Below, one piece after another: positions 3,653-32,258 of a stretch of 32,476 nt of DNA (its first letter is position 1; every line of letters begins with the position of its first letter). The notes under the pieces are model-generated. The model saw nothing but the letters and a program-made list of their open reading frames with translations, did no database searches and was not told the origin of the DNA. The translations under genes were made by a program, and so were the position numbers. The DNA lies in assembly GCA_016214755.1 (NCBI GenBank), contig JACRNX010000070.1, forward strand, positions 1 to 32,476. Reading direction: 5' to 3'. This stretch comes from Candidatus Falkowbacteria bacterium (GTDB lineage: Bacteria > Patescibacteriota > Patescibacteriia > UBA11705 > JABHMO01).

Positions 3653-5035
3653 ATGCTGTCAGTTAACGATATTGTAACTGAAGACTTAATTCAAGATATT
3701 TTAAATAGAACAAAAAATGCCAGCGATAAAATCGCGCTGGCGATTTTAGAGAAAGCGAGAAAGAAAAAAGGATTAACGCTTGAGGAAGTCGGTTGTTTGA
3801 TTAACGCGCGAGATGACGGATTGATTGCGGAAATATTTGACGCCGCGCGCCAAGTAAAATCAGAAATTTACGGCGAACGTTTAGTCCTTTTCGCGCCGCT
3901 TTACGTTTCCAGCCATTGCGTCAACAATTGCGCGTACTGCGGTTTTCGACAGGATAATGGCGCGGGGCGGAAAAAATTAAGTTTGGAAGAAGTGGCGGAG
4001 CAAGTTAAAATTTTAGAATCAATGGGGCATAAGCGCCTGTTGCTGGAATTTGGCGAGGATCCGAAAGAGTCGCCGATTGACTATGTCGTTGAAGTTATTA
4101 AAACAATTTATGCCACCAAATGCGGTTTAGGCGAAATCCGACGAGTGAACGTTAATATCGCTGCCGATACGGCTGAAAATTATCGACAGTTAAAGGATGC
4201 GGGCATTGGCACTTATCAATTGTTTCAGGAAACTTATGACCGAAAAACTTATAAACAATTGCATCAGGGGCCCAAAGCGGATTACGAGCGGCAACTGTTC
4301 GCCATGGATAGGGCGTTTGAAGCAGGGATTGATGACGTGGGTTTGGGCGTATTATTCGGTCTTTATGATTGGCGGTTTGAAGTGCTGGCAATAATTAGCC
4401 ACGCGCGATACTTGGAAAAAAAGTTTGGCGTTGGCCCGCACACGATTTCTGTCCCGCGCTGGCAAAAAGCAGACGGCGCTCTCTGGCAATCAGCGCCGTC
4501 AGCTGTTTCTGACGATGATTTTTTGAAAATTATCGCTATCCTCCGTTTAGCTGTTCCTTACACGGGCATGATTATTTCCACCCGCGAACGGCCGGAAATT
4601 CGCGCCAAAGCGTTCAGCGTCGGTATTTCGCAGACCTCGGCCGCTTCGAGGACTTCGCCTGGCGGCTATGGCCAAAAATCAGAAACAGCGAATCAGTTTT
4701 GCGTTGCTGACGAGCGAACGCTTGACGAAGTAATCGCGAGTATCCTCGCTCAAGGTTTATTACCGAGTTTTTGCACTGCTTGTTATCGTTTAAAACGCAC
4801 GGGTGAAAATTTTATGGAGTTGGCAAAGCCGGGAGAAATCCAAAAATATTGTCGTCCAAACGCGATTTTGACTTTTCAAGAATATCTCGCGGACTATGCG
4901 TCGCCGGCAGTCAAGGAAAGCGGCGCGCGGGCGATTCAAAAACATTTGAACGCGATTGAAGATTCCGCCGTCCGCGAAGAAACGAAAAAACGGCTGGCGC
5001 GCGTCGCGGCCGGCGAACGCGATATTTATTTTTAG
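3653..5035 (+). CDS. hydG: [FeFe]-hydrogenase maturase HydG (radical SAM tyrosine lyase, ThiH-like)
   Basis: LVLFAPLYVSSHCVNNCAYCGFRQDN radical-SAM motif of the ThiH/HydG family. C-terminal FCTAC-X22-C (CX2CX22C) auxiliary-cluster motif, which is diagnostic for HydG versus ThiH. Confidence 0.85.
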   Translation: MLSVNDIVTEDLIQDILNRTKNASDKIALAILEKARKKKGLTLEEVGCLINARDDGLIAEIFDAARQVKSEIYGERLVLFAPLYVSSHCVNNCAYCGFRQDNGAGRKKLSLEEVAEQVKILESMGHKRLLLEFGEDPKESPIDYVVEVIKTIYATKCGLGEIRRVNVNIAADTAENYRQLKDAGIGTYQLFQETYDRKTYKQLHQGPKADYERQLFAMDRAFEAGIDDVGLGVLFGLYDWRFEVLAIISHARYLEKKFGVGPHTISVPRWQKADGALWQSAPSAVSDDDFLKIIAILRLAVPYTGMIISTRERPEIRAKAFSVGISQTSAASRTSPGGYGQKSETANQFCVADERTLDEVIASILAQGLLPSFCTACYRLKRTGENFMELAKPGEIQKYCRPNAILTFQEYLADYASPAVKESGARAIQKHLNAIEDSAVREETKKRLARVAAGERDIYF

Positions 5036-5128
5036 GACTTGAAATTTTTGATATTTATTGATACGCTGTATTTTGTAATTTGGGATTTGTTTAGAATTTA
5101 GAAATTCGGATTTAGAATTTGTTAGAGG

Positions 5129-5213
5129 GGGCAGGTGGTGGAACTGGTAGACACGTACGGTTCAGAGCCGTATGCCGCGAGGCATGAGGGTTCAAATCCC
5201 TCTCTGCCCACCA
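5129..5213 (+). tRNA. tRNA-Leu (anticodon CAG)
   Basis: Hand-folded cloverleaf: acceptor GGGCAGG/TCTGCCC, 3-bp D stem, anticodon stem TACGG/CCGTA with loop TTCAGAG, long variable arm (tgccgcgaggca), T-loop TTCAAAT, encoded CCA. Confidence 0.85.
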
Positions 5214-5311
5214 ATTTAGAAGTTAGAAATTGGAAATTGGAAGTTAGAGAAATAGATAGTTCTCATTTTTATTTTCCAACTTCTTATCTCCCATCTCTCA
5301 CCTCCAAATTT

Positions 5312-5387
5312 GGGCTCGTAGCTCAGTTGGTAGAGCGCGGCAATCGCAATGCCGAGGCCAGGGGTTCGATTCCCCTCGAGTCCACCA
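5312..5387 (+). tRNA. tRNA-Ala (anticodon CGC)
   Basis: Cloverleaf with the G3·U70 identity pair (GGGCTCG/CGAGTCC), anticodon loop ATCGCAA, T-loop TTCGATT, encoded CCA. Confidence 0.9.
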
Positions 5388-5405
5388 CCCCGACGGACGT
5401 CGGGG
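5388..5405 (+). terminator. GC-rich trailer hairpin after tRNA-Ala (CCCCGACG-ga-CGTCGGGG)
   Basis: Inverted repeat immediately 3' of the CCA end. The same core recurs after tRNA-Pro and at two other sites. Confidence 0.4.
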
Positions 5406-5544
5406 AAACTCAAAATTCCAAGCTCAAAATCCAAAGTAAATTTAAATTTTATAAATTTGATATTTAATTTGAATTTTAGGTTTTGTGCTTGAATCTATAA
5501 GGGTTTGTATCCTAGTCGAAATTTGTTAAAAGATTATAATAATT

Positions 5545-6522
5545 ATGGAATATACGGATAGGGTGTATGGAAATTTTGAAATCGAAGAACCGGTTATTTT
5601 GGAATTGATAAATTCTCCGACGCTTCAGCGATTAAAAGAAATAGATCAAGCGTGATACGGCGAGTCCTATTTCCCGGGCACCGCGCACTCCCGTTTTGAA
5701 CATTCAGTCGGCGTCTATTTGCTTCTTAAAATGTATCAGGCGCCGCTTGAAGAACAAATCGCCGGACTAATTCACGATGCCTCGCATTCAGCTTTTTCCC
5801 ATTGCATAGATTATGTTTTAGACGCCGGCTCGGGGAAAGAACACAATCATCAAGATAATGTTTTTGATGAATTTGTCAGAAAGTCGAAAATTCCCGAAAT
5901 ATTTAAAAAATATAATTTTGATTTAGAATATATTTTGGATGATAAAAATTTTCCGTTAAAAGAAAAGGATTTGCCGGATTTGTGCGCGGACAGAATTGAT
6001 TATTCATTAAGAACCGCCGTTGTTTTTGGAGAAATTGAAAACGGTCAGTATTTTATTGACAATCTTTCGGCAGAAAACGGCCAATGGATTTTCAAGGATT
6101 TTGAAAGCGCGGAAAAATACGCTGAATTATTTTTAAAACTTAACGCCAACTACTACGCTGGTTTGCCTTCCGCGGTTATGTTCCGGACAGTCGGCGACTA
6201 TCTCCGCTACGCGCTTTCAAAACAATATATTTCTGAAACTGATTTATATACCACTGACAAAGTCGTGCTGGAAAAAATAGAGCCGCATATTGAAACTGAT
6301 CCAGAATTAAGTTTGCTGTTTGACAGAATGAATAATAAAATCGGTTTTAAAAACGACCCGAATAATTTTGATGCCAAGGTTTTTTGTAAATCGCGAATGG
6401 TAAATCCTCTTTGCCGGCATGATGGAAAAATCAAAAGAGTTTCAGAGGTAAAGCCAAGTTGGGATGATATAATAAAGCGGGAATCTAAGCCGAAAGAGTA
6501 TTTTTTGAAGTTTGATAAGTAG
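5545..6522 (+). pseudogene. HD-domain metal-dependent phosphohydrolase interrupted by in-frame TGA (5653..5655)
   Basis: The conserved HD N-terminus (…LQRLKEIDQA*YGESYFPGTAHSRFEHSVGVYLL…) is split by an opal codon exactly where HD proteins have a conserved Gly (QLG…YPGA.H.RFEHSLGV). The listed ORF 5719..6522 (TTG start) lacks the H..RFEHS metal-binding half of the HD motif. Confidence 0.55.
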
Positions 6523-6655
6523 TCGGACCGGATGCGGAGGAGAACCGCCCATCATCTTCAAAGGCCAGGCGAGCTTTTGAAGGAATAGCAAAAAACAGAT
6601 AAAGATAATTTATTTGTTTTTTTATTTCAGCTAATTTTAGAGAGGTTTAGGATAG

Positions 6656-6684
6656 TTGACAGAATCATTTTTTTGTGCTATACT
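6656..6684 (+). promoter_or_regulatory. Sigma70-like promoter TTGACA-17-TATACT upstream of GC-rich islet
   Basis: Consensus -35 TTGACA (6656-6661), 17-nt spacer, -10 TATACT (6679-6684), about 45 nt upstream of the SD/ATG at 6731. Confidence 0.5.
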
Positions 6685-6730
6685 TTTATGTTCAGTGACA
6701 TGAACATCAACAACCTAAAGGAGGTGCGTA

Positions 6731-7099
6731 ATGAGGTACGACCAGTTCGTAGGGCTCAACGAAAGAGCCCAGGAGCTCATCAAGGGCGAGCAGGAGCTCG
6801 CCTACACGGAAGAGGTGGTGCGTATTTACCCTGATGGCGGGCAGGAAAGGATGCCGGATCGTCCGGTGTTCGAGTCCACGGTCAAGAAAGAGGAGAGCGG
6901 CGAATCATACACGGGTATGTTCACCGTCGAATATCCGCTCCACAAGTACACTTTCCCCAACGGCCAAATATACTACGAGCGCCTGCAGACAGCGCCGTGG
7001 TCGTCCGGCCCAGTCCATTTCCTCGCCCTCCAAAACGAAGACGGAAAGTGGGTTCCTGAATCCCTCTGGACAGACGAGGAAATCAGGCAAAACACTTAA
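6731..7099 (+). CDS. Hypothetical protein (GC-rich islet gene 1)
   Basis: 122-aa ORF preceded by a strong SD (aaaggaggtgcgtaATG). GC3-rich codon usage unlike its neighbours. Confidence 0.5.
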   Translation: MRYDQFVGLNERAQELIKGEQELAYTEEVVRIYPDGGQERMPDRPVFESTVKKEESGESYTGMFTVEYPLHKYTFPNGQIYYERLQTAPWSSGPVHFLALQNEDGKWVPESLWTDEEIRQNT

Positions 7100-7215
7100 C
7101 CGTTTCTCCCATCTTTCAAGCAAATCAATGGAACGCCCACGCGCGTTCCAATCTCCCCAAGCGATGTGATCCTTCGGTAAGTTCAGGATGATATCGTTTG
7201 GGGAGGTGAACAACC

Positions 7216-7449
7216 ATGATCAACAATAACGCGAAGATTCTGGTGTTCTCGGGTCTGGTGTCCAGGGAATGCGAAGCAGCGGCAGTGCCCAAAGGGCGTC
7301 TGCCTGAGGCGAAGGTGCTGGCGGAGCGTCGGTTGCGCGAGCTCGTCGGGAGGACGCAGGCGGCGCGGCAGGCGGGCAACTTCGAGAGGTACTACACGCT
7401 TCGTCAGCAGGTTCGCGAGATATCTCCCTCCATCGGCCGTCACCTCTAG
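7216..7449 (+). CDS. Hypothetical small protein (GC-rich islet gene 2)
   Basis: 77-aa ORF with SD ggggaggtgaacaaccATG, in the GC-rich segment. Confidence 0.4.
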   Translation: MINNNAKILVFSGLVSRECEAAAVPKGRLPEAKVLAERRLRELVGRTQAARQAGNFERYYTLRQQVREISPSIGRHL

Positions 7450-7613
7450 AAATCCCCTTGGTTCTATCCTCACGAAAAATCCAACCATTTCTACGCCGTG
7501 GACTTCTCTAAGTTCACGGTCCTTCCTTAAAAAATGATTATCATCGTTTTATAAGGAAGTTTCACGAGCAACGTGTTCGTGAAAAGGAAAACCAAACAGA
7601 TAGGGGAGGAAAA

Positions 7614-7874
7614 ATGTTCTGGAAAGCAAAGTTTTACATTGGGATCAGTTTCTTCACTATCGGCGCACTCGCTTTTCTCCTTTCCATCATGTCGCCCACC
7701 TGCAACGGGAATGTACACTTCATCATGTGGTGTACGTATATTCCCCCCGAGAAGTTCAGGTTCTTCGGCTCTTTGATGCTCATTGGCGGTGGGGTATTTC
7801 TTTATGCCTCATTGTCGGGCTTCCTGCGACACTATAAGAGTCTTCAAAGTCACCTGCCATCATCCCGCCAGTAG
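7614..7874 (+). CDS. Hypothetical small membrane protein (GC-rich islet gene 3)
   Basis: 86-aa ORF with SD taggggaggaaaaATG and two predicted hydrophobic helices. Confidence 0.45.
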   Translation: MFWKAKFYIGISFFTIGALAFLLSIMSPTCNGNVHFIMWCTYIPPEKFRFFGSLMLIGGGVFLYASLSGFLRHYKSLQSHLPSSRQ

Positions 7875-8062
7875 CGCTCCGACGTACCCGTCGAAGCGTT
7901 TTCCATTTTAAATATCAGGTTTACAATTTTTTTTTGATTTGTTAAAATCAAATCAATATTATATGGATTTACCCCACCGTGGCGGGGTATACGGATTTTT
8001 TGAGAAAGGACTAAACGTTTTCTTGATTTATTATTTTTTTGATTTCTTAATTTTTTATTTAT

Positions 8063-8139
8063 GGACGACTAGCTCAGCTGGTTAGAGCGCTACACTCACA
8101 CTGTAGAGGTCACTGGTTCGATCCCAGTGTCGTCCACCA
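8063..8139 (+). tRNA. tRNA-Val (anticodon CAC)
   Basis: Cloverleaf: acceptor GGACGAC/GTCGTCC, anticodon loop CTCACAC, T-loop TTCGATC, encoded CCA. Confidence 0.9.
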
Positions 8140-8223
8140 ATTTGGAAGTTGGAGATTAGAGATTGGAGGTTAGAAAGATACTCACTTCTAACTTCTCATT
8201 TCCAATTTCCCGTCTCCAAATTA

Positions 8224-8300
8224 CGGGGTATGGCGCAGTTGGCTAGCGCGCATGCATGGGGTGCATGAGGTCGCCAGTTCAAATCTGGCTACCCCGACCA
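8224..8300 (+). tRNA. tRNA-Pro (anticodon GGG)
   Basis: Cloverleaf: C1-G72 acceptor CGGGGTA/TACCCCG, anticodon loop ATGGGGT with G37, T-loop TTCAAAT, encoded CCA. Confidence 0.9.
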
Positions 8301-8378
8301 TCCTTCGAGGTTCGTCCCGCCAGAAGCGGGACTCGCACCTCAGGATGACAAAAAAATACAGAAGTACTAGAACAAAAA

Positions 8379-24696: not shown

Positions 24697-24701
24697 TTTG
24701 T

Positions 24702-24872
24702 TTACGCCTTAGTTAGGGTTTTAAGGCATTTGGTGCAGATTAATGTTCGCTTGCCATTGATTTTTCTGCCTTGCAGATTCGGGCGTTGCCGCCTTTTTAC
24801 CGCAATGTTGGAATGACTTCGGAAGATTTTAATCGTCGGCCCGCGGCCGCACTTTTCGCAAATTTTTGACAT
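24702..24872 (-). CDS. rpmB: 50S ribosomal protein L28 (bL28)
   Basis: 56-aa ORF missed by the 60-aa cutoff: MSKICEKCGRGPTIKIFRSHSNIAVKRRQRPNLQGRKINGKRTLICTKCLKTLTKA. Pattern M.K.C..CGK…SHS…KR…PNLQ… typical of L28. Confidence 0.7.
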   Translation of the reverse strand: MSKICEKCGRGPTIKIFRSHSNIAVKRRQRPNLQGRKINGKRTLICTKCLKTLTKA

Positions 24873-24904
24873 AGTAAATAGATAATAAATAAAAAATTGC
24901 TACA

Positions 24905-25180
24905 AATTACCCTTCGACCCTTCGACAAGCTCAGGGCTCAGGGCAAGCTTATCACTACGAATGTTACAAATAAAAACTCTAACTATCTATCTCGAAAAAT
25001 CCGTACCAGAGTGTCATGGTGAGGCATGTGCTGAGTTTATCGAAGCGCTCTCAAACCACGACACTGGCACCCTTCGAGGGCCTCAGGGTGACAGAAAGAA
25101 CGCAATTGTCATCCTGAGGAATGTCACCCTGAGCTTGTCGAAGAGTGCGAGTCCCCGACGTAAAGTCGGGACGAGCCGCG
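24905..25180. repeat. Complex repeat region: tandem 8-mers, nested palindromes and long-range inverted repeats
   Basis: cccttcga x2 and gctcaggg x2. cttcgacaagctcaggg (about 24921) pairs with ccctgagcttgtcgaag (about 25122). cctcagggtgaca…tgtcatcctgagg palindrome. gtccccgacgtaaagtcgggac hairpin (25151-25172). Confidence 0.6.
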
Positions 25181-25325
25181 AAGGACGTAATCCGTATTTT
25201 CACATTGGATTTATTCTACCACGCGTGATATAATATTTCAAGTGTCCGTTGCCTCAACCGCATATTTGCGAAAACATTTTGTAATGACGAGTTAGGCGCC
25301 GCAGCCTCTATGGTAAAATACAACT

Positions 25326-25610
25326 ATGAAACTTAATGATGAACAGCAAAAAAAACTTATAGAAAAACTCAATGAAGTTTGGCAACAGCCAAAGATTTGT
25401 TCAGTTTGTGGACATAATCAGTGGGATGTTTCTGATAGAATCTTTGAGTTACGCGAATTTCATGGAGGGGGCATGGTAATTGGCGGGCAGTCGAGTATTA
25501 CTCCAATTGTCCATGCAACCTGCAAAAATTGCAGTCACACATTATTTTTCAATGCCCTTAAAATAGGCTTAATTGATAAAGATGTCAATTCCACCAGCAA
25601 AACAGAGTGA
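25326..25610 (+). CDS. Hypothetical zinc-ribbon protein (CxxC…CxxC)
   Basis: 94-aa ORF with CSVCGH…CKNCSH. AT-rich island. Confidence 0.5.
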   Translation: MKLNDEQQKKLIEKLNEVWQQPKICSVCGHNQWDVSDRIFELREFHGGGMVIGGQSSITPIVHATCKNCSHTLFFNALKIGLIDKDVNSTSKTE

Positions 25611-25995
25611 GAGTGAAATCGAGATATCTCAATCATGCCAATTACCAGTCCCAGAAAAATGGAAGGGCTTTCCTGTGTATGGAAAAGATTGGGATAGAAT
25701 AAAGAAAATGGTTGATAGAATTATTTCCCCCACAAGTTTTTGGCAAATCGTATGGCCAGCTTCTTTTGGTATATCCATTTCTGCTCTACTGAGTGCACTG
25801 ACTATACTCGAGAAAGGTCATCCAAATAAAACCTCTTGCTACTGGCTTTTCTTGCTATTCATGATCATTGGTATTCTAACCTTAATAATAGATAAAACTC
25901 GTAAAGCAGCATCTATATCTACTAAGGAGCAGTTGAAGGAAGAAATGGAAAAAATGGAAGAACCCTACAAAACAGATAGGGGCTATGGCGGCTAA
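25582..25995 (+). CDS. Hypothetical small membrane protein (2 TM)
   Basis: Overlaps the preceding gene in another frame. Two hydrophobic helices. Start uncertain (TTG 25573 or ATG 25582). Confidence 0.45.
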   Translation: MSIPPAKQSESEIEISQSCQLPVPEKWKGFPVYGKDWDRIKKMVDRIISPTSFWQIVWPASFGISISALLSALTILEKGHPNKTSCYWLFLLFMIIGILTLIIDKTRKAASISTKEQLKEEMEKMEEPYKTDRGYGG

Positions 25996-26145: not shown

Positions 26146-27009
26146 ATGAGCAGCTACGAAGATTTTAAAAATCGGTTCAAATTACTAGCTGGCAAAAATC
26201 GTCATTTGGTAGTTAATACCTTATCAAACATTTTTACAATGAGATTAATTGGGAATAAAACGCACGGCGATTTAGCTGAAATTGGAATTGTCGAGTTTAT
26301 CAATCAATTCATGTATGATTTTAAAAGTATTCATGTTGGCAAAGACCTTTTTCGGGCGAAAGAACACGAAGAAGATATAATGATAATGAGCGAGATAAGC
26401 AAAACGAAATTTCCCGTCAGCTTAAAAGCTTATGGGGATGGTCTTTTGCAATTATCCACTGACAGCAAACAGAAGATGTTCCCATTTCTTGAAAAGCAAG
26501 GTAAAGAAATCCGGGATAATAGAAAGATAGAAGCAATTTTTAACGCTTCTGAATTTTTCGATTTTGGGGCAATAAATGTAATGCCTCTAATTTATGATGA
26601 AAAAAATCAACGCTGCAACATCATGATTTTTGACCATAAAAAGGCAAGAGACAACATAAATAAAATTATATTTATTGATAAGGGACAAAGATTTGATTTT
26701 ATGACAGGCAGAGTGGTGCCAGGAAAGGGGAGATCCCATCCGATTTATATGTTTGTAGATCCTAAAAATGAATATATATGTGAAGTAAGATATGGCGGTG
26801 CTTCGGCAAATGCTTTACAGCGCGGCCTTTGGACACACACAAAAAACGCTATTGATTATTTTGACTCTCTCACAAATGGCTGGATAGATTATTCACACAA
26901 TCATACACTTGTAAAACTTTTTGGCCTTGCTTTAAATAGTTCCGAAGAAGGTCATAAAGTTGCTAATGAAATCTTACAGAAAGACATTGATAGGCTTAAA
27001 AAATTATGA
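26146..27009 (+). CDS. Putative Type II restriction endonuclease
   Basis: 287-aa ORF whose stop overlaps the methyltransferase start (ATGA), the classic R-M gene arrangement. Distant resemblance (…YICEVRYGGASANA…) to DpnII/MboI-family catalytic region. Unconfirmed. Confidence 0.5.
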   Translation: MSSYEDFKNRFKLLAGKNRHLVVNTLSNIFTMRLIGNKTHGDLAEIGIVEFINQFMYDFKSIHVGKDLFRAKEHEEDIMIMSEISKTKFPVSLKAYGDGLLQLSTDSKQKMFPFLEKQGKEIRDNRKIEAIFNASEFFDFGAINVMPLIYDEKNQRCNIMIFDHKKARDNINKIIFIDKGQRFDFMTGRVVPGKGRSHPIYMFVDPKNEYICEVRYGGASANALQRGLWTHTKNAIDYFDSLTNGWIDYSHNHTLVKLFGLALNSSEEGHKVANEILQKDIDRLKKL

Positions 27010-28133
27010 ACGATCAACAATTAGACATTTTCGGCAGAAAAACATTGGTTGTTCCGACAACAGAAGGCATCAAATACGCAGGGTCAAAATTAAAAATACT
27101 ACCTTACATCGTTCAAATTCTAGGCGAACTTGACGGAGTAAAAAAGGTACTTGATGGGTTTAGCGGAACAACCAGAGTTTCTCAAGCTTTTGCTCAGCTT
27201 GGATATAAAACGACAGCCAACGATATTTCAGCTTGGTCTGAAGTTTTTGGTACGTGCTATCTAAAGTCAAAAAAAGAAGATAAATTTTATCAGCAAATTT
27301 TAGATCGCTTGAATGGCTTAAAAGGATATGATGGCTGGTACACAAAACACTACGGGGCGGAAATAGACGAGGGCAAAAAACCCTTTCAAACAAAGAATAC
27401 TAGAAAACTCGATGCAATAAGGGATGAGATAGAGAAATTGGATTTATCGTGGGAAGATAAATGTGTTATTTTAACAAGCTTAATCTATGCCCTTGATTCT
27501 GTTGATAGTACCCTTGGGCACTATGTTTCTTACTTGGCAAAATGGTCTCCAAGATCGCATAATGGTTTATTTTTGAAATTGCCAAAAAGATTTAAAACCA
27601 AAGGAAAACACGAAGTAATTCGTGGAGATATTTTTGATACGATACAAAAAAAAGAATTTGATTTTGTATATTTCGACCCTCCTTATGGCTCAAACAATGA
27701 AAAAATGCCTCCGAGCCGTGTCAGGTATGCTTCTTATTATCACATATGGACTACTATTATCAATCACGACAAGCCTGAATTATTTGGAAAGGTTAATCGA
27801 AGAGTGGACACAAGAGATATTGTTGCTAGTTCTGTTTTTGAGGAATTTAGAAAAAATGAAAAAGGAAGTTTTATCGCTATGGAGGCGTTAAGAAAACTAA
27901 TCCAAGAAACTAAATCTCATTATATTCTTCTTTCGTATAGTTCTGGAGGTAGGGCGACGAAGCAAGAATTAAATGACATAATACACGAATCGGGAAAATT
28001 ACTAAAAGCAGTTGAAATTAACTATAAAATAAATGTTATGGGTGGTATGCGTTGGACAAACAAATGGATTAACAGCGATAATCAACACCATGAGTATTTA
28101 TTCTTAATGGAAAAGACAAGGAATGTGTTTTGA
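27006..28133 (+). CDS. DNA N6-adenine methyltransferase, D12 (Dam-like) class
   Basis: Motif I-like KYAGSKLKILPYI and catalytic FDFVYFDPPYGS (DPPY). Confidence 0.85.
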   Translation: MNDQQLDIFGRKTLVVPTTEGIKYAGSKLKILPYIVQILGELDGVKKVLDGFSGTTRVSQAFAQLGYKTTANDISAWSEVFGTCYLKSKKEDKFYQQILDRLNGLKGYDGWYTKHYGAEIDEGKKPFQTKNTRKLDAIRDEIEKLDLSWEDKCVILTSLIYALDSVDSTLGHYVSYLAKWSPRSHNGLFLKLPKRFKTKGKHEVIRGDIFDTIQKKEFDFVYFDPPYGSNNEKMPPSRVRYASYYHIWTTIINHDKPELFGKVNRRVDTRDIVASSVFEEFRKNEKGSFIAMEALRKLIQETKSHYILLSYSSGGRATKQELNDIIHESGKLLKAVEINYKINVMGGMRWTNKWINSDNQHHEYLFLMEKTRNVF

Positions 28134-28283
28134 CTAAGGAGCAGGAGGGTCGGAGGTGAACGCCTCGAAGCCAAAACGAAAATAAAATTTGTTAATTGCT
28201 GAGAAGTATCCGACTGTTGTCGAGAAAAAAAGTATACGCCATATAATCCGAAATATCTCGTTTAAGAATTTTTCACGTTAATT

Positions 28284-28407
28284 AATTTTTTAAATGATTT
28301 TAAATTATGATGCTGATGTCGTTAATAAGCGAACCGTTATTTTTCATTGTTTGGCTATTCGCCATTGTCGTGGTTTTGACTATCCACGAATTTTCGCACG
28401 CGCTCGC
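28284..28407 (+). repeat. Direct repeat copy A (about 89% identical to 29522..29646), 5' end of M50 protease gene
   Basis: 124-nt segment including the upstream AT-rich leader and the first about 33 codons (MMLMSLISEPLFF.VWLFAIVVVLTIHEFSHALA). 44 nt are identical at the distal end. Confidence 0.85.
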
Positions 28408-28438
28408 AAATAACGGCCGAAATAGAAAAAGAAGATAA
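28307..28438 (+). pseudogene. Truncated remnant of M50/S2P metalloprotease N-terminus (44 aa)
   Basis: Encodes MMLMSLISEPLFFIVWLFAIVVVLTIHEFSHALANNGRNRKRR*. Identical or near-identical to the first TM/HExxH segment of the intact gene at 29546, then diverges. Confidence 0.6.
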
Positions 28439-28536
28439 AACTCTTGCGCGAAGTGTTGCGGATAGGACTTTACCCTTCGCCAAAAGCTATCATAATCGTG
28501 AAACGCGTCATTTTTTAGCAGGTTTTCACGTTTTAT

Positions 28537-28565
28537 TTGACAAAAAGGTGAAAAGGGTATAAAAT
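28537..28565 (+). promoter_or_regulatory. Consensus sigma70 promoter TTGACA-17-TAAAAT driving the Fic gene
   Basis: -35 TTGACA (28537-28542), 17-nt spacer, -10 TAAAAT (28560-28565), 37 nt upstream of the ATG at 28602. Confidence 0.55.
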
Positions 28566-28601
28566 AGAGTTAAAGCGCTTAATTCTTTTAATTTTATAGC
28601 T

Positions 28602-29507
28602 ATGCCAAAAACATTACATATTATTAACATAATTTCTCACCTGCGAGAACGTTATTATGCCGCGGCTGTTGGCAAACAGGCGCTTTTGAAATTGTTGAGC
28701 GAAGCGGAAGTGGCCGAACAGGTATATAACTCCAATGCCATTGAAAACAGCACGCTCACTCTTGAAGAAACAGAGAAAATACTTTTGCAAATAGATTTGG
28801 ATAGATATATTACTGAACGAGAAATTTTTGAAGCGAAAAATCTGGCGCGGGTTGTGTCATATATTGACAAAAGAGCCAAGGAGCAAGAATTAACTCTCGA
28901 AGTAATTTTATCACTTCATAAAATGTTAATTTCAAATATCCGCGACGATATTGCCGGTAGATTCAGAAAGGAAAATGAATTTGTGCGTGTCGGCAGCCAC
29001 ATCGCCCCTAACCCCAAAGAGATAGTGAATCGTCTGGAAAAAATATTGTCCGAATATAATGCTTCGAGTCATGAAAATATAATCAGAAGAATAGCAAAAT
29101 TGCATCTTGCCTTTGAATACACTCATCCATTTTGTGACGGCAATGGCCGCATTGGCCGCGTTATCAATAATTACCTGTTAATACGAGAAGGGTTTGTCCC
29201 TATAAATATAAAATTTATTGACAGAAAAAAATATTATGAAGCGTTTATAGAATTTGATGCCAAGGGCGCGACCGCTATTATGGAAGAAATAGTCGGCAAG
29301 GCGCTGACCAATAGTTATTATAAACGACTTGCTTATCTTGAGGGCGCGCAGATTCTAACCCTTGCTGAATATGCAAAAATGAATAAAATATCCCACTCTA
29401 ATTTAATTAATAAAGCCAGCCGTCAAACAATTGAGGCCTTCTTAGAAAAAGGGGTGTGGAAAATAGGCGTCGCGCAAAAAGACAGTATGAACAAATCAGA
29501 ACCCTAA
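28602..29507 (+). CDS. Fic-domain protein (class II, AMPylase-type) with C-terminal winged-helix-like region
   Basis: FIC motif HPFCDGNGRIGR (HxFx[DE]GNGRxxR). N-terminal inhibitory-helix motif SNAIEN ([ST]xxxE[GN]) upstream of the core. Confidence 0.85.
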   Translation: MPKTLHIINIISHLRERYYAAAVGKQALLKLLSEAEVAEQVYNSNAIENSTLTLEETEKILLQIDLDRYITEREIFEAKNLARVVSYIDKRAKEQELTLEVILSLHKMLISNIRDDIAGRFRKENEFVRVGSHIAPNPKEIVNRLEKILSEYNASSHENIIRRIAKLHLAFEYTHPFCDGNGRIGRVINNYLLIREGFVPINIKFIDRKKYYEAFIEFDAKGATAIMEEIVGKALTNSYYKRLAYLEGAQILTLAEYAKMNKISHSNLINKASRQTIEAFLEKGVWKIGVAQKDSMNKSEP

Positions 29508-29521
29508 TAAAAGCAATGAGT

Positions 29522-29646
29522 AATTTTTTAAAATGATTTTAAATTATGATGCTGATGTCATTAATAAGCGAACCGCTGTTTTTTGTCGTCTGGCTGTTCG
29601 CCATTGTCGTGGTTTTGACTATCCACGAATTTTCGCACGCGCTCGC
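29522..29646 (+). repeat. Direct repeat copy B (start of intact M50 protease gene)
   Basis: See copy A. Together the repeats bracket the Fic gene. Confidence 0.85.
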
Positions 29647-30223
29647 GGCCACACTCCTCGGCGATCCGACGGCGAAAGCGGCCGGCCGATTAACATTGAA
29701 TCCGCTATCCCACATCAGTTGGCTGGGATTTTTTATGCTGTTGCTGGTCGGTTTTGGTTGGGGAAATCCCGTGCCTTTTAATCCGTACAATCTCCGTTTT
29801 CCGCGGTTCGGCCCGGCCATCGTCGCTCTGGCTGGCCCGCTTTCCAATCTTATTTTGGCGGCAATTTTTATTTTTTCCTTCCGCTGGATCTTTCCTGATT
29901 TGCACCCGCTTTTTCTCATCAACGCTGGAAGCGCCAACCTGCCGGCGGAGTTGAATTTGCTCGCAATTTTTTTATCGTTGGCGACTTTTTTAAATTTGAC
30001 TTTGGCGATTTTCAACTTGATTCCCATCCCGCCGCTCGACGGTTCGAAGATATTGTTCAGCGTTTTGTCAGACGCGCGTTTTTTTTCAATTAAAGAAATA
30101 CTGGAGCGGCAGGGCTCGATGATTTTAATTGGCATTATTATTTTGGATAACTTTTTGAACACCAATATCTTTGGCCGGCTGATTTTCGCTGTCATCGGCG
30201 CTGTTTACAAACTGGTCGGATAA
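29546..30223 (+). CDS. Site-2 protease family (peptidase M50) zinc metalloprotease, short form
   Basis: HEFSHALAA (HExxH) in TM1 and NLIPIPPLDGS (LDG motif). Multi-TM, 225 aa. Confidence 0.8.
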   Translation: MMLMSLISEPLFFVVWLFAIVVVLTIHEFSHALAATLLGDPTAKAAGRLTLNPLSHISWLGFFMLLLVGFGWGNPVPFNPYNLRFPRFGPAIVALAGPLSNLILAAIFIFSFRWIFPDLHPLFLINAGSANLPAELNLLAIFLSLATFLNLTLAIFNLIPIPPLDGSKILFSVLSDARFFSIKEILERQGSMILIGIIILDNFLNTNIFGRLIFAVIGAVYKLVG

Positions 30224-30387: not shown

Positions 30388-30807
30388 ATGCCTTCTCTAC
30401 CAGAGTTTCTCAAATTTTTAACAGTCAGTCCGCCGTCCGGATTAATTATCGCCAAAAAGAAGCTAATGACAAAAAAAGCGCGGATGGAGCTTTCTCAAAT
30501 GAAAAGAGTGTCTGAAATTTTTGAAGTTACAAAAAACAGCGATGTTGTGGATTTTTTTAAGGCGGTTGATAAAGTTCTAAAACAAAACGCTTGGCTTGTT
30601 TTGGATATTAAAACAGCAGACATTCCCGGTTGGCTTTACGAGCAGATGCGGACTCTTGGCGAAAACGGCCATCTTTATAACAAAGACCAAGATAAAGATA
30701 TTAGGATGGGCGACAGCCGCGTTTTAGCAATAATATCTGAAGAAAATCTTGAAGAATGTCCCTTTGAAACGTTTCAGGCGGATTTTGGAATAGTTTTCAG
30801 AACATAA
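30388..30807 (+). CDS. Hypothetical protein (139 aa)
   Basis: ORF immediately upstream of, and co-oriented with, the AAA ATPase gene. No domain recognised. Start uncertain (internal Met at MTKKARMEL…). Confidence 0.45.
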   Translation: MPSLPEFLKFLTVSPPSGLIIAKKKLMTKKARMELSQMKRVSEIFEVTKNSDVVDFFKAVDKVLKQNAWLVLDIKTADIPGWLYEQMRTLGENGHLYNKDQDKDIRMGDSRVLAIISEENLEECPFETFQADFGIVFRT

Positions 30808-30821
30808 ATATTTTCAAACAT

Positions 30822-32258
30822 ATGCCTAAATCAGAAAGGGCGTCGGGAGGAGGAATCTTTGAAAGTCGGACCGAACGCGCCAAGCGCGAGCCGATTTTTT
30901 ATTTTACCACCCGCGAAACCGATCGAAGAACCAGCGAGGCCTATGAAAAGAAATGGGTCTCGGTGCTCGGTATTGAGTTAGAGGTTTATGACGCGGAGCG
31001 CGAAGGAGGAGAAGGAACGAATTTTCGCCAAGAAGAATTTGACGATTTTCTGCATGATGACAAAGCAAAAGCAATTTTAAAACATTTTGCCATCGGCGTC
31101 AAACTAAACCACGCCCCTTTAATTGAAGGCGAGACCGACATTGGCAAAACTAAAGCCCTTGAATATTTGGCTTATCTTACTAATCACAAGTTAGTGCGCG
31201 TTTCTGTTCGCGGCACGACCGACCCATCAGAATTTTTTGGCAAGCATGTGCCCGAGTCGGCCACCGCTCAGCAGAAGATTTTGGACGCCATCAAAAGAAA
31301 GGCGGGGCTGACAAAAGAAGTCCGCGAACGAGTGGAGAAAGCGCAAAAAGCCGGCCAGTCATTTTCCCTTGAAGATTATAAGGCGCTCGCTGATTGGCAA
31401 ACAAAATCATTGTCAGGGTTGCAAAAAGAAGCGCTTTCATTTTTTCAAAAGGCGGTAAAAGAGGGCAGAGGATTGACCCGGGAAGAATGGGAACAGTTCG
31501 CGGCCATAGAGGGCATTGATCTTGAAAGTAAGATGTTTCATTGGCAAGACGGCGAAGTGGTTAAGGCCATGACGCGAAACAATGGCCATGGCTATTGGAT
31601 TTATATTGATGAAATCGGCGCGGCCGAGCCGCAAATTTTGGTCGCTTTAAATCGTATCCTTGAACAGCAAAGGCGCATTGAACTATCGGAAGACGGCGGT
31701 CGTTCTGTGGAAGCGGGCAAACATTTTCGTCTTTTTGCTTCAACTAATCCTCCTGAATACGCCGGCCGCCTGCCTTTGGCGCCTGATTTTTTGCGCCGCT
31801 GGGCTTACAAAAAAGAAAGCCCGCTCTCCGAGAAAGACATCAAAGAACGTTTTGCCCATATCGCGCGCGTGATTCCTCTTGAGCAAGAAATCAGAGAATT
31901 GTTTTGCGATGTATTAACCGTTTTTCATCTTTCTCTTCGCAGTTCAATTAAGGATATTTTGAAAAAGCAAAAACAAAAGTTTAATTATGAATTTTCCGAT
32001 TTGATTAGAGTGCGCGATTATTTTGTCGGTCTCGGCAATCAAGATCCGCTCGCCGCTCTGCGCGAAGGGATGGAATACGCTGTTTTTGCAAAAATCGGCG
32101 ATGAAGAACAGAGAAAAGCGCAGAGAGAGGCCTTTGAAACTTTATTGAAAAGTAAAACAATTCCGGAAAAAGTGAAAAAGATAATTGAAAAAAGAAGAAT
32201 ATCTGGCGCGGTCGGCCAAGCAGTGAGCAAGATGGGGCAGGATATTGCTGGTTTTTAA
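30822..32258 (+). CDS. AAA+ ATPase, AAA_5/MoxR-like, with about 90-aa insertion between Walker A and B
   Basis: Walker A GETDIGKT, VRVSVRGTTDPSEFFGKHVP (MoxR-like box), Walker B WIYIDEIGAA, sensor/Arg-finger region FASTNPPEYAGRLPLAPDFLRRW. Confidence 0.7.
   Translation: MPKSERASGGGIFESRTERAKREPIFYFTTRETDRRTSEAYEKKWVSVLGIELEVYDAEREGGEGTNFRQEEFDDFLHDDKAKAILKHFAIGVKLNHAPLIEGETDIGKTKALEYLAYLTNHKLVRVSVRGTTDPSEFFGKHVPESATAQQKILDAIKRKAGLTKEVRERVEKAQKAGQSFSLEDYKALADWQTKSLSGLQKEALSFFQKAVKEGRGLTREEWEQFAAIEGIDLESKMFHWQDGEVVKAMTRNNGHGYWIYIDEIGAAEPQILVALNRILEQQRRIELSEDGGRSVEAGKHFRLFASTNPPEYAGRLPLAPDFLRRWAYKKESPLSEKDIKERFAHIARVIPLEQEIRELFCDVLTVFHLSLRSSIKDILKKQKQKFNYEFSDLIRVRDYFVGLGNQDPLAALREGMEYAVFAKIGDEEQRKAQREAFETLLKSKTIPEKVKKIIEKRRISGAVGQAVSKMGQDIAGF

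Follow-up and report, generated by a model that had tools for sequence, protein, structure and literature searches.

How does a gene come to sit within the opening codons of another gene, with no recombinase at its side, and leave that other gene whole? The question is raised by a 32,476-nt stretch of DNA from a Candidatus Falkowbacteria bacterium (assembly GCA_016214755.1, contig JACRNX010000070.1, positions 1 to 32,476 of the forward strand; hereafter ‘the window’, meaning the whole stretch analysed), in which a gene for a Fic-family protein lies between two direct repeats, each made up of the leader and first codons of a gene for an M50-family (site-2) protease. On balance, we think it probable that a Fic unit of ~1.0 kb was acquired horizontally and inserted into the start of the M50 gene, with duplication of ~124 nt of the target and by a recombinase-independent route; the route being something we infer from the structure of this locus and its relatives. 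A first-pass annotation, made from the sequence alone, had already proposed an insertion footprint with target duplication, and that proposal is upheld by the empty site seen in relatives, by a break in M50 homology after codon 34, by the mobility of the Fic unit, and by the recurrence of flanking duplications around the same gene elsewhere. The repeat copies and the genes they involve, all on the plus strand, are:

28284..28407, plus strand: upstream (remnant) copy of the repeat; 21–23 nt of M50 leader followed by M50 codons 1–34.
28307..28438, plus strand: dead-end open reading frame (ORF) of 43 aa; first transmembrane segment of M50 and HEFSHALA, ending after 9 further, unrelated residues.
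28408..28487, plus strand: 80-nt filler from the remnant to the conserved Fic unit; without match in the window or in 93 other Fic loci.
28602..29507, plus strand: Fic gene, 301 aa, class II; Pfam Fic PF02661, 1.8e-22.
29522..29646, plus strand: downstream copy of the repeat, continuous with the intact M50 gene; starts 15–18 nt past the Fic stop codon.
29546..30223, plus strand: intact M50/site-2-protease gene; PF02163; 225 aa from the first ATG (NCBI protein P0121: 222 aa).

Aligned as 28286–28407 and 29525–29646, the two copies are offset by 1239 nt and agree at 113 of 122 positions (92.6%); over 28284–28407, the interval used in the first-pass annotation, the figure is 114/124 (91.9%). The repeat described there is thus real, whilst its quoted identity of 89% was too low and its 44-nt perfect core too short—the identical block comprises the final 50 nt of the repeat (28358–28407 = 29597–29646). 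All nine mismatches are confined to the first 72 nt, a split for which we estimate, post hoc, p ~0.007. Comparison of the window with itself by blastn recovers this pair (E = 6e-47) as the sole long repeat in the 32.5 kb, and a third copy, sought throughout the window, was not found.

The reading frame opened by the upstream copy (28307–28438) translates as MMLMSLISEPLFFIVWLFAIVVVLTIHEFSHALANNGRNRKRR followed by a stop; at 43 aa it is one residue shorter than first reported, makes weak matches to Pfam M50 models, and should be flagged in annotation as a pseudogene fragment. When both copies are aligned with relatives, the upstream one departs from M50 homology exactly after codon 34 (HEFSHALA), with the downstream one running on. 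Over codons 1–34, eight of the nine differences between the copies are synonymous, the sole amino-acid change being I/V; at 7/9 codon differences the upstream copy is the AT-richer, and polarising the differences by eye, with a 75%-identical outgroup, divides them three sites against two and is thus uninformative. A search of all fetched loci for the origin of the filler (28408–28487), and for that of the leader, returned no match.

What the site looked like beforehand can be read from related genomes, for which three further features of the window are needed:

24705..24872, minus strand: rpmB (ribosomal protein L28); TIGR00009, 5.3e-10, 39.6 bits, under the NCBI cut-off of 48.3 bits.
25207..25236, plus strand: probable ancestral M50 promoter, TTGGAT-18-TATAAT; conserved with positions 4171–4200 of the related locus L174.
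26146..28133, plus strand: type II restriction-modification (R-M) pair of low GC; restriction endonuclease (REase) 26146–27009, D12-class methyltransferase (MTase) 27006–28133.

In relatives, rpmB is the direct divergent neighbour of M50, and so marks the left edge of the ancestral locus; the gene first came to our attention as a tblastx ‘conserved non-coding element’ at 24700–24880, an identity that had to be discarded. Seven related loci (L001–L005, L012 and L041) carry a single M50 gene ~130 bp from divergent rpmB, with neither R-M nor Fic genes. For L001–L004 and L012 the full order is MacB-type permeases, ABC ATPase, HlyD-type gene (minus strand), rpmB (minus strand), ~130 bp and the single M50 gene, and for L005 and L041 at least the rpmB–M50 adjacency is seen. 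The closest M50 found, in L174 (75% aa identity), has the same upstream genes (rpmB being read there from sequence only), is likewise single, lacks R-M and Fic, and is followed directly by rpsL-rpsG-fusA-tuf-rpsJ. No second copy of M50 lies within 10 kb on either side in 80 related loci or in L174; the arrangement with two full M50 paralogues, which would have pointed to simple duplication and decay, is therefore found in no related locus. The rpmB–M50 arrangement of the relatives is the empty site—M50 without Fic—for which the first-pass annotation had proposed to look. In the window, rpmB and M50 are 4.67 kb apart, and the counterpart of the L174 promoter, which sits ~130 nt upstream of M50 in that locus, precedes the whole of the intervening islet.

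The Fic gene has a history quite unlike that of its M50 neighbour. Its relatives number more than 120 cluster representatives at 80–93% aa identity, spanning Magasanik-, Uhr-, Roizman-, Moran- and Falkowbacteria, Paceibacterota and other groups of the Candidate Phyla Radiation (CPR, or Patescibacteria), against a best identity to anything of 75% aa for M50. Across the first five of these groups and others, Fic keeps 84–93% aa identity. We examined 93 other Fic loci, representing at least 52 independent, unrelated contexts; the neighbours differ in every genome examined, and in none of the 93 is M50 found beside Fic. Nucleotide homology among the units extends from ~80–115 nt upstream of the ATG to the stop codon. 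In four pairs (L120/L170, L120/L139, L088/L101 and L134/L149) the units are 95–96% identical at the nucleotide level in flanks that are unrelated, with homology starting between −81 and −190 from the ATG and ending between −16 and +138 from the stop; because these bounds vary from pair to pair, the unit has no fixed ends. The GC content of Fic ranges from 32 to 45% and that of the host flanks from 33 to 56%, with a slope of 0.59 for third-position GC on flank GC, indicating partial amelioration. No recombinase accompanies the unit: between the repeats of the window, Fic is the only plus-strand ORF of at least 60 aa, the minus-strand ORFs all lying inside it and being spurious. Searches of IMG/VR, of the INPHARED phages and of the PLSDB plasmids gave no close relative (at most 36% aa identity) and identified no vector; the unit is often assembled as contigs of ~1–1.5 kb, and a search for circular forms through terminal overlaps among these short contigs found none. 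Taken together, a promoter-carrying Fic unit of ~1 kb is mobile and has spread over CPR classes without a recombinase of its own.

Duplications flanking this unit recur. We compared 1 kb upstream with 1 kb downstream of each unit for same-strand matches (leaving out L140), and obtained a match of at least 30 bits in 13 of the 52 independent contexts, against 0.6 expected from cross-locus pairs; at 120 bits or more, five contexts remain (115–213 nt), against 0.08 expected. These five are:

Window: 124 nt, 92–93% identical; M50 leader and 34 codons.
L088: 213 nt, 87% identical with blocks of 94–98%; apparently intergenic DNA.
L135: 195 nt, 94% identical; 3′ end of a convergent gene of 454 aa.
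L150: 115 nt, 90% identical; leader and ~21 codons of the downstream gene.
L151: 139 nt, 93% identical, the first ~88 nt without difference; apparently intergenic DNA.

Shorter flanking repeats occur at L152 and L169, and repeats of 25–43 nt at L117, L121, L123, L136 and L156, the latter being partly AT-rich or overlapping another gene and hence counted only statistically. The duplicated DNA is local and different at every locus, its downstream copy beginning 14–87 nt past the Fic stop. As a control, we screened 1.285 Mb of CPR loci for direct repeats at least 80 nt long, at least 85% identical and spaced 0.9–2.6 kb apart, and found none. L148 and L150 come from two assemblies of related strains, with 91–95% identity over the aligned DNA, and have one diverged scar in common, from which it follows that a duplication can persist and diverge in place; this makes plausible the earlier view that the window's insertion is not a recent event. 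At L135 and L150, unlike the window, differences between the copies are largely non-synonymous, as would be expected for decay in situ.

As for the gene that was inserted, it is by sequence criteria an ordinary class II Fic protein, akin to known single-gene defence Fic systems. The catalytic motif HPFCDGNGRIGR (H175–R186, nt 29124–29159) has its consensus residues (H, F, D, GNGR and R) invariant in 30 homologues, and the inhibitory motif SNAIEN (S44-NAI-E48-N49, nt 28731–28748), N-terminal to the Fic core, is likewise invariant in homologues. Residues 16–215 align to human FICD (E = 9e-21), placing S44-N-A-I-E48-N49 over the FICD inhibitory helix TVAIEG; the class II assignment made in the first-pass annotation is thereby upheld, inhibitory motif included, and a predicted AMPylase that holds itself in check intramolecularly is supported. 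Since a class II Fic protein is self-inhibited, no separate antitoxin is expected; none was found, nor any conserved small partner gene adjoining, in answer to the partner check suggested earlier. An exact look-up of the window Fic and M50 proteins returned no record. Among PADLOC profiles, Fic matches PDC-S04 (3.7e-33) and SoFic (3.5e-26, residues 33–288), reaching 39 bits with the NCBIfam SoFic equivalog against a cut-off of 550. Within an AlphaFold2 model built on a shallow alignment, residues ~250–290 reach a pLDDT (predicted local distance difference test) of 71–89 and form a strand-helix-helix-strand-strand arrangement, so that in the model the C-terminal ~50 aa look like a winged helix-turn-helix (wHTH); used as a query against Pfam and the PDB sequences, the last 81 aa gave no match.

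Upstream of the gene, the conserved part of the unit includes a control region, laid out on the plus strand as follows:

28488..28601, plus strand: Fic 5′ control region, 114 nt; conserved, with a consensus drawn from 62 loci.
28497–28503, plus strand: CGTGAAA box.
28523–28530, plus strand: inverted box, TTTTCACG.
28537–28542, plus strand: −35 element of the Fic promoter, TTGACA.
28548–28553, plus strand: GTGAAA box within the spacer.
28560–28565, plus strand: −10 element of the Fic promoter, TAAAAT, after a 17-nt spacer.

The TTGACA-17-TAAAAT promoter noted earlier is indeed present, and at 11/12 is the top-scoring sigma-70-like site across 24.6–31 kb. The consensus of the 62 loci reads A.AA.CGTGAAA - N8 - TTTT - N7 - TTTTCACG.TTAT.TTGACAAAA..GTGAAA.....TAtAaT, in which two CGTGAAA boxes, inverted with respect to each other, closely precede the −35 element and a third box occupies the spacer. 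Because they are conserved in sequence, the (C)GTGAAA boxes suggest a protein operator, and the wHTH-like C-terminal domain of Fic probably represses its own promoter through the three of them. A further copy of TTTTCACG, identical to the operator box at 28523–28530, is found at 28270–28277, 30 nt upstream of the start codon of the remnant, in a stretch with a loose resemblance to the Fic control region; the window contains three copies of this motif against 3.7 expected, so that its occurrence is not above chance.

These elements can be assembled into a proposed course of events. A self-sufficient unit, comprising operator-like boxes, a strong sigma-70-type promoter and the Fic ORF, would have entered the first 34 codons of M50, its left junction falling, in the coordinates of the target, ~124 nt downstream of the right one, such that the intervening target segment was doubled. 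Such an event could have come about if a long staggered break was filled in, or if replication switched template; we favour a coupled illegitimate insertion and duplication because there is no recombinase, no common attachment (att) site, no fixed end to the unit and no constant length of duplication. The downstream copy would have restored an intact M50 gene and the upstream copy been left as the 43-aa stump, after which the repeats would have diverged to ~92–93%, their 3′ 50 nt perhaps being kept identical by gene conversion. M50, now without an adjacent promoter of its own, is most likely transcribed from the Fic promoter, by read-through from 25207–25236, or both; the gap between Fic and M50 is 38 nt, with no predicted terminator.

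Saying this, several observations weigh against an insertion of the kind just described. Approximately 75% of Fic loci have no recognisable flanking repeat, so duplication may be an occasional outcome and not the rule, or old scars may have decayed, and neither a donor sequence nor a circular form has been seen. The preponderance of synonymous differences in the window, together with the confinement of mismatches to the first 72 nt, fits the functional alleles of two strains better than it does neutral decay (we estimate p ~0.03 for the synonymous bias under neutral divergence in situ), a bias that is absent in L135 and L150. With regard to the protein, the AlphaFold2 model is poor overall (pLDDT 48), and AMPylation activity, a role in defence, autoregulation and co-transcription with M50 are predictions.

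The synonymous bias is also the starting point for an account that we regard as possible, if rather doubtful: that the two copies are alleles of two genomes, brought together by a Campbell-type single crossover, or by homology-facilitated illegitimate recombination in transformation, with a donor ~7–10% diverged that carried its own M50 5′ allele beside Fic or R-M, leaving one homologous and one illegitimate junction. Eight silent differences and a single I/V exchange are what such alleles would show; the 50-nt perfect block, after which the upstream copy stops abruptly at 28407, could represent a crossover or heteroduplex tract, and the upstream copy, at the 7/9 differences where it is the AT-richer, resembles the adjoining low-GC islet. 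Competence and pilus genes are, moreover, commonly encoded in Patescibacteria (PMC12455944). However, the account needs a donor with Fic or R-M already at this locus, and none was found—the closest M50 being 75% identical at the amino-acid level, and M50 being absent from the vicinity of all 93 other Fic loci. It also leaves unexplained why long duplications recur at unrelated targets, and sits poorly with the largely non-synonymous differences of L135 and L150 and with the L148/L150 scar, which is already diverged. A contig chimera, in which two co-occurring strains were joined through the Fic unit during assembly, would similarly yield copies that differ like alleles, and the unit does occur in multiple contexts and often on contigs of ~1–1.5 kb; yet it would require two independent Fic insertions 124 nt apart in one gene of sister strains, like structures are found in independent assemblies of other studies (L088 on a 150-kb contig of a metagenome-assembled genome, L150 on an 88-kb contig, L135 and L151), and L148 independently reproduces the left half of L150. 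We consider such an artefact very unlikely.

Two further accounts strike us as scarcely credible. In one, M50 was duplicated in tandem, or gave rise to a paralogue, and one copy decayed, Fic having landed between the two through an unrelated event. The presence of the gene start in duplicate is what this explains; the remnant, however, breaks off abruptly at codon 34, the rest of the gene having left no trace, only one M50 is present within 10 kb on each side in the 80 related loci and L174, and the same geometry around Fic elsewhere would have to be coincidence. In the other, a site-specific integrative element used an att site in the M50 5′ end and carried a replacement for it, the 50-nt block being the att core. 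Long direct repeats that are imperfect outside a perfect core and differ mostly at synonymous sites, such as those of the window, are typical of elements of the e14/icd type. Here, though, there is no integrase and no ORF other than Fic between the repeats, the repeats of L088, L135, L150 and L151 are unrelated local DNA with no att in common, the edges of the unit vary, and the phage, virus and plasmid collections hold no relatives; the missing integrase, the lack of a common att and the variable edges largely refute it.

Set beside known systems, the insertion with target duplication that we favour recalls several without coinciding with any. As with e14 or phage 21 in icd, and with islands in the 3′ ends of tRNA genes, long imperfect repeats of a target-gene end leave one copy intact and the other a stump; in contrast to those elements, the insert is of 1.1 kb, is without an integrase, has a different target in each genome and is flanked by repeats of ~25–213 nt. 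Target-site duplications made by transposons or by target-primed insertion likewise place the target on both sides of the insert, and the variable length seen here recalls staggered-nick mechanisms; those made by bacterial transposases are short and of fixed length (2–15 bp), and no reverse transcriptase was seen here. A DDE- or IS-type transposon was rejected, there being no transposase, no inverted repeat at the edges of the unit and a length-variable duplication of ~124 nt. Diversity-generating retroelements have a nearby reverse transcriptase, mismatches confined to adenines and a variable region at the 3′ end of the target gene; this candidate too was set aside, since no reverse transcriptase was found among the genes scanned at 22.9–32.3 kb, the repeat is at the 5′ end of M50, and the mismatches are mostly transitions in both directions, not confined to template adenines. 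An integron cassette consists of a promoterless ORF and an attC palindrome, with IntI and attI nearby; it was discarded because the unit has its own promoter, unit homology ends at the stop codon and target DNA resumes 15–18 nt beyond it. Homology-facilitated illegitimate recombination and merodiploidy offer recombinase-independent entry, with one illegitimate junction and partial duplications as possible products; the process is, however, reported from experiments in model bacteria only and needs a homologous anchor, which unrelated targets would lack (PMC3240628, PMC3784515).

The protein, for its part, has the same core HxFx(D/E)GNGRxxR and N-terminal [S/T]xxxE[G/N] as other class II Fic proteins (human FICD/HYPE, C. 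difficile CdFic and B. thetaiotaomicron BtFic), differing from FICD in having no TPR or transmembrane parts and in the presence of its wHTH-like C-terminal domain. It belongs to a CPR-specific subfamily of roughly 8000 or more members, at most ~36% identical to proteins of the plasmid and phage collections, with an activity that is predicted. SoFic and PDC-S04 are likewise single Fic genes, although the hidden Markov model match to them is at family level only, and the window gene lies by a type II R-M system. SoFic is reported to act against phage by abortive infection through AMPylation (PMC12249575); by analogy with SoFic/PDC-S04, and with a type II R-M pair as neighbour, Fic is likely to be an abortive-infection or toxin-type defence gene. 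We know of no CPR phage system in which defence assays could be performed.

What is unusual is not so much the protein as the unit: strongly conserved, recombinase-less, promoter-bearing and distributed over CPR classes, with long and variable target duplications that recur. The occurrence of the same recombinase-less gene between similarly long duplications, in genomes unrelated to one another, suggests that it inserts by a route so far undescribed. Going further, and more tentatively, one may picture the self-regulated Fic unit as an autonomous ‘minimal mobile gene’ of CPR, whose insertion regularly gives variable target duplications of ~25–210 nt by a mechanism undescribed for bacterial mobile DNA; an extension we hold to be doubtful. 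Capture at long staggered breaks and template switching during natural transformation are candidates for such a mechanism, and the activity of Fic might itself promote these events, for example by AMPylating topoisomerases. If true, the duplication would allow the unit to enter essential genes without harm, and to be lost again when the two repeats recombine. Were the duplications regular, genomes could be searched for them as the mark of a recombination route overlooked by standard mobile-element finders, and they would explain how a housekeeping gene can receive another gene at its start and survive. CPR bacteria make up a large share of bacterial diversity and gene exchange among them is poorly understood; the present locus is a clean case, in that relatives show the empty site, the scar is exact, and a unit of ~1 kb has spread without a recombinase. 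A further suggestion is that M50 has come to rely on foreign promoters; the target of Fic in reduced CPR cells, along with its possible anti-phage role, is of interest. Within the literature library searched, the terms ‘Fic domain’ and ‘Candidate Phyla Radiation’ occur together in no paper, and Fic goes unmentioned in the paper on horizontal gene transfer in Hainich Patescibacteria.

The Fic insertion is not alone in the M50 5′ region. From the probable ancestral promoter (25207–25236) onwards, the plus strand carries in order a 94-aa ORF, a 140-aa ORF, REase, MTase, the M50 stump, Fic and M50, with a GC content of 32–37% across 25.5–29.4 kb against 44–50% around. PADLOC matches of 1.6e-111 (REase_II) and 4.4e-138 (MTase_II) identify a genuine type II R-M system, confirming the earlier placing of Fic beside an R-M islet. 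No terminator is predicted from MTase to M50, and long repeats flanking the R-M islet were looked for and not found. The islet represents an insertion of its own, situated in the M50 leader past the ancestral promoter, such that two insertions have hit the M50 5′ region. The two ORFs that open it, upstream of R-M (25326–25995), overlap and match no family; the 94-aa product has two CxxC pairs and is zinc-ribbon-like, with weak matches only, and the 140-aa product is membrane-protein-like by eye.

The other side of M50 is also occupied in the window by accessory DNA: a 139-aa ORF without family match and a 478-aa AAA_5 ATPase (weak PADLOC match to mad8, 3.4e-5) take up 30388–32258, after which the contig ends, whereas in L174 the stretch following M50 (5159–13001) is occupied by rpsL-rpsG-fusA-tuf-rpsJ-rplC and so on; accessory DNA thus lies on both sides of the window gene.

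Other Fic loci show differences immediately beyond the gene. L103 (1300–1454) and L107 (2249–4741) are 99% identical up to the Fic stop and then differ by ~2.5 kb, containing a 230-aa ORF and a 299-aa ORF (cysteine-synthase-like by eye) and placed between Fic and a large convergent ORF that is RNA-polymerase-subunit-like by eye; the point directly behind the Fic stop thus looks like a hot spot for recombination. At ~5001–7664, L090–L093 carry a pair of distinct Fic-family genes (303 and 315 aa), which share a strand and have a 93-aa minus-strand ORF between them, and in L090 an IS110-family transposase and a RhuM-like gene are nearby. A 38-nt segment of the window just past the MTase stop (28137–28174) matches L090–L093 at 7672–7709 on the opposite strand (82%, E = 0.001), the latter lying just past the stop of the second, different Fic-family gene (Magasanikbacteria); the match could be fortuitous or reflect a small element common to both.

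Between rpmB and the ancestral M50 promoter, 24900–25160 is a GC-rich element, rich in inverted repeats, that looks like a miniature inverted-repeat transposable element: ACCCTTCGACAAGCTCAGGG (24917–24936) has a 95% complementary copy at 25127–25146, and a 31-nt inverted repeat pairs 25063–25093 with 25122–25152. The equivalent spacer of L174 contains AT-rich GATAAAA-type repeats instead. Rfam and tRNA scans of the window detect four distant tRNAs only, with no RNA gene or tRNA target at the insertion site; beside one tRNA-Val/tRNA-Pro pair (8063–8300) lies a 32-nt near-perfect palindrome (8377–8408, 94%).

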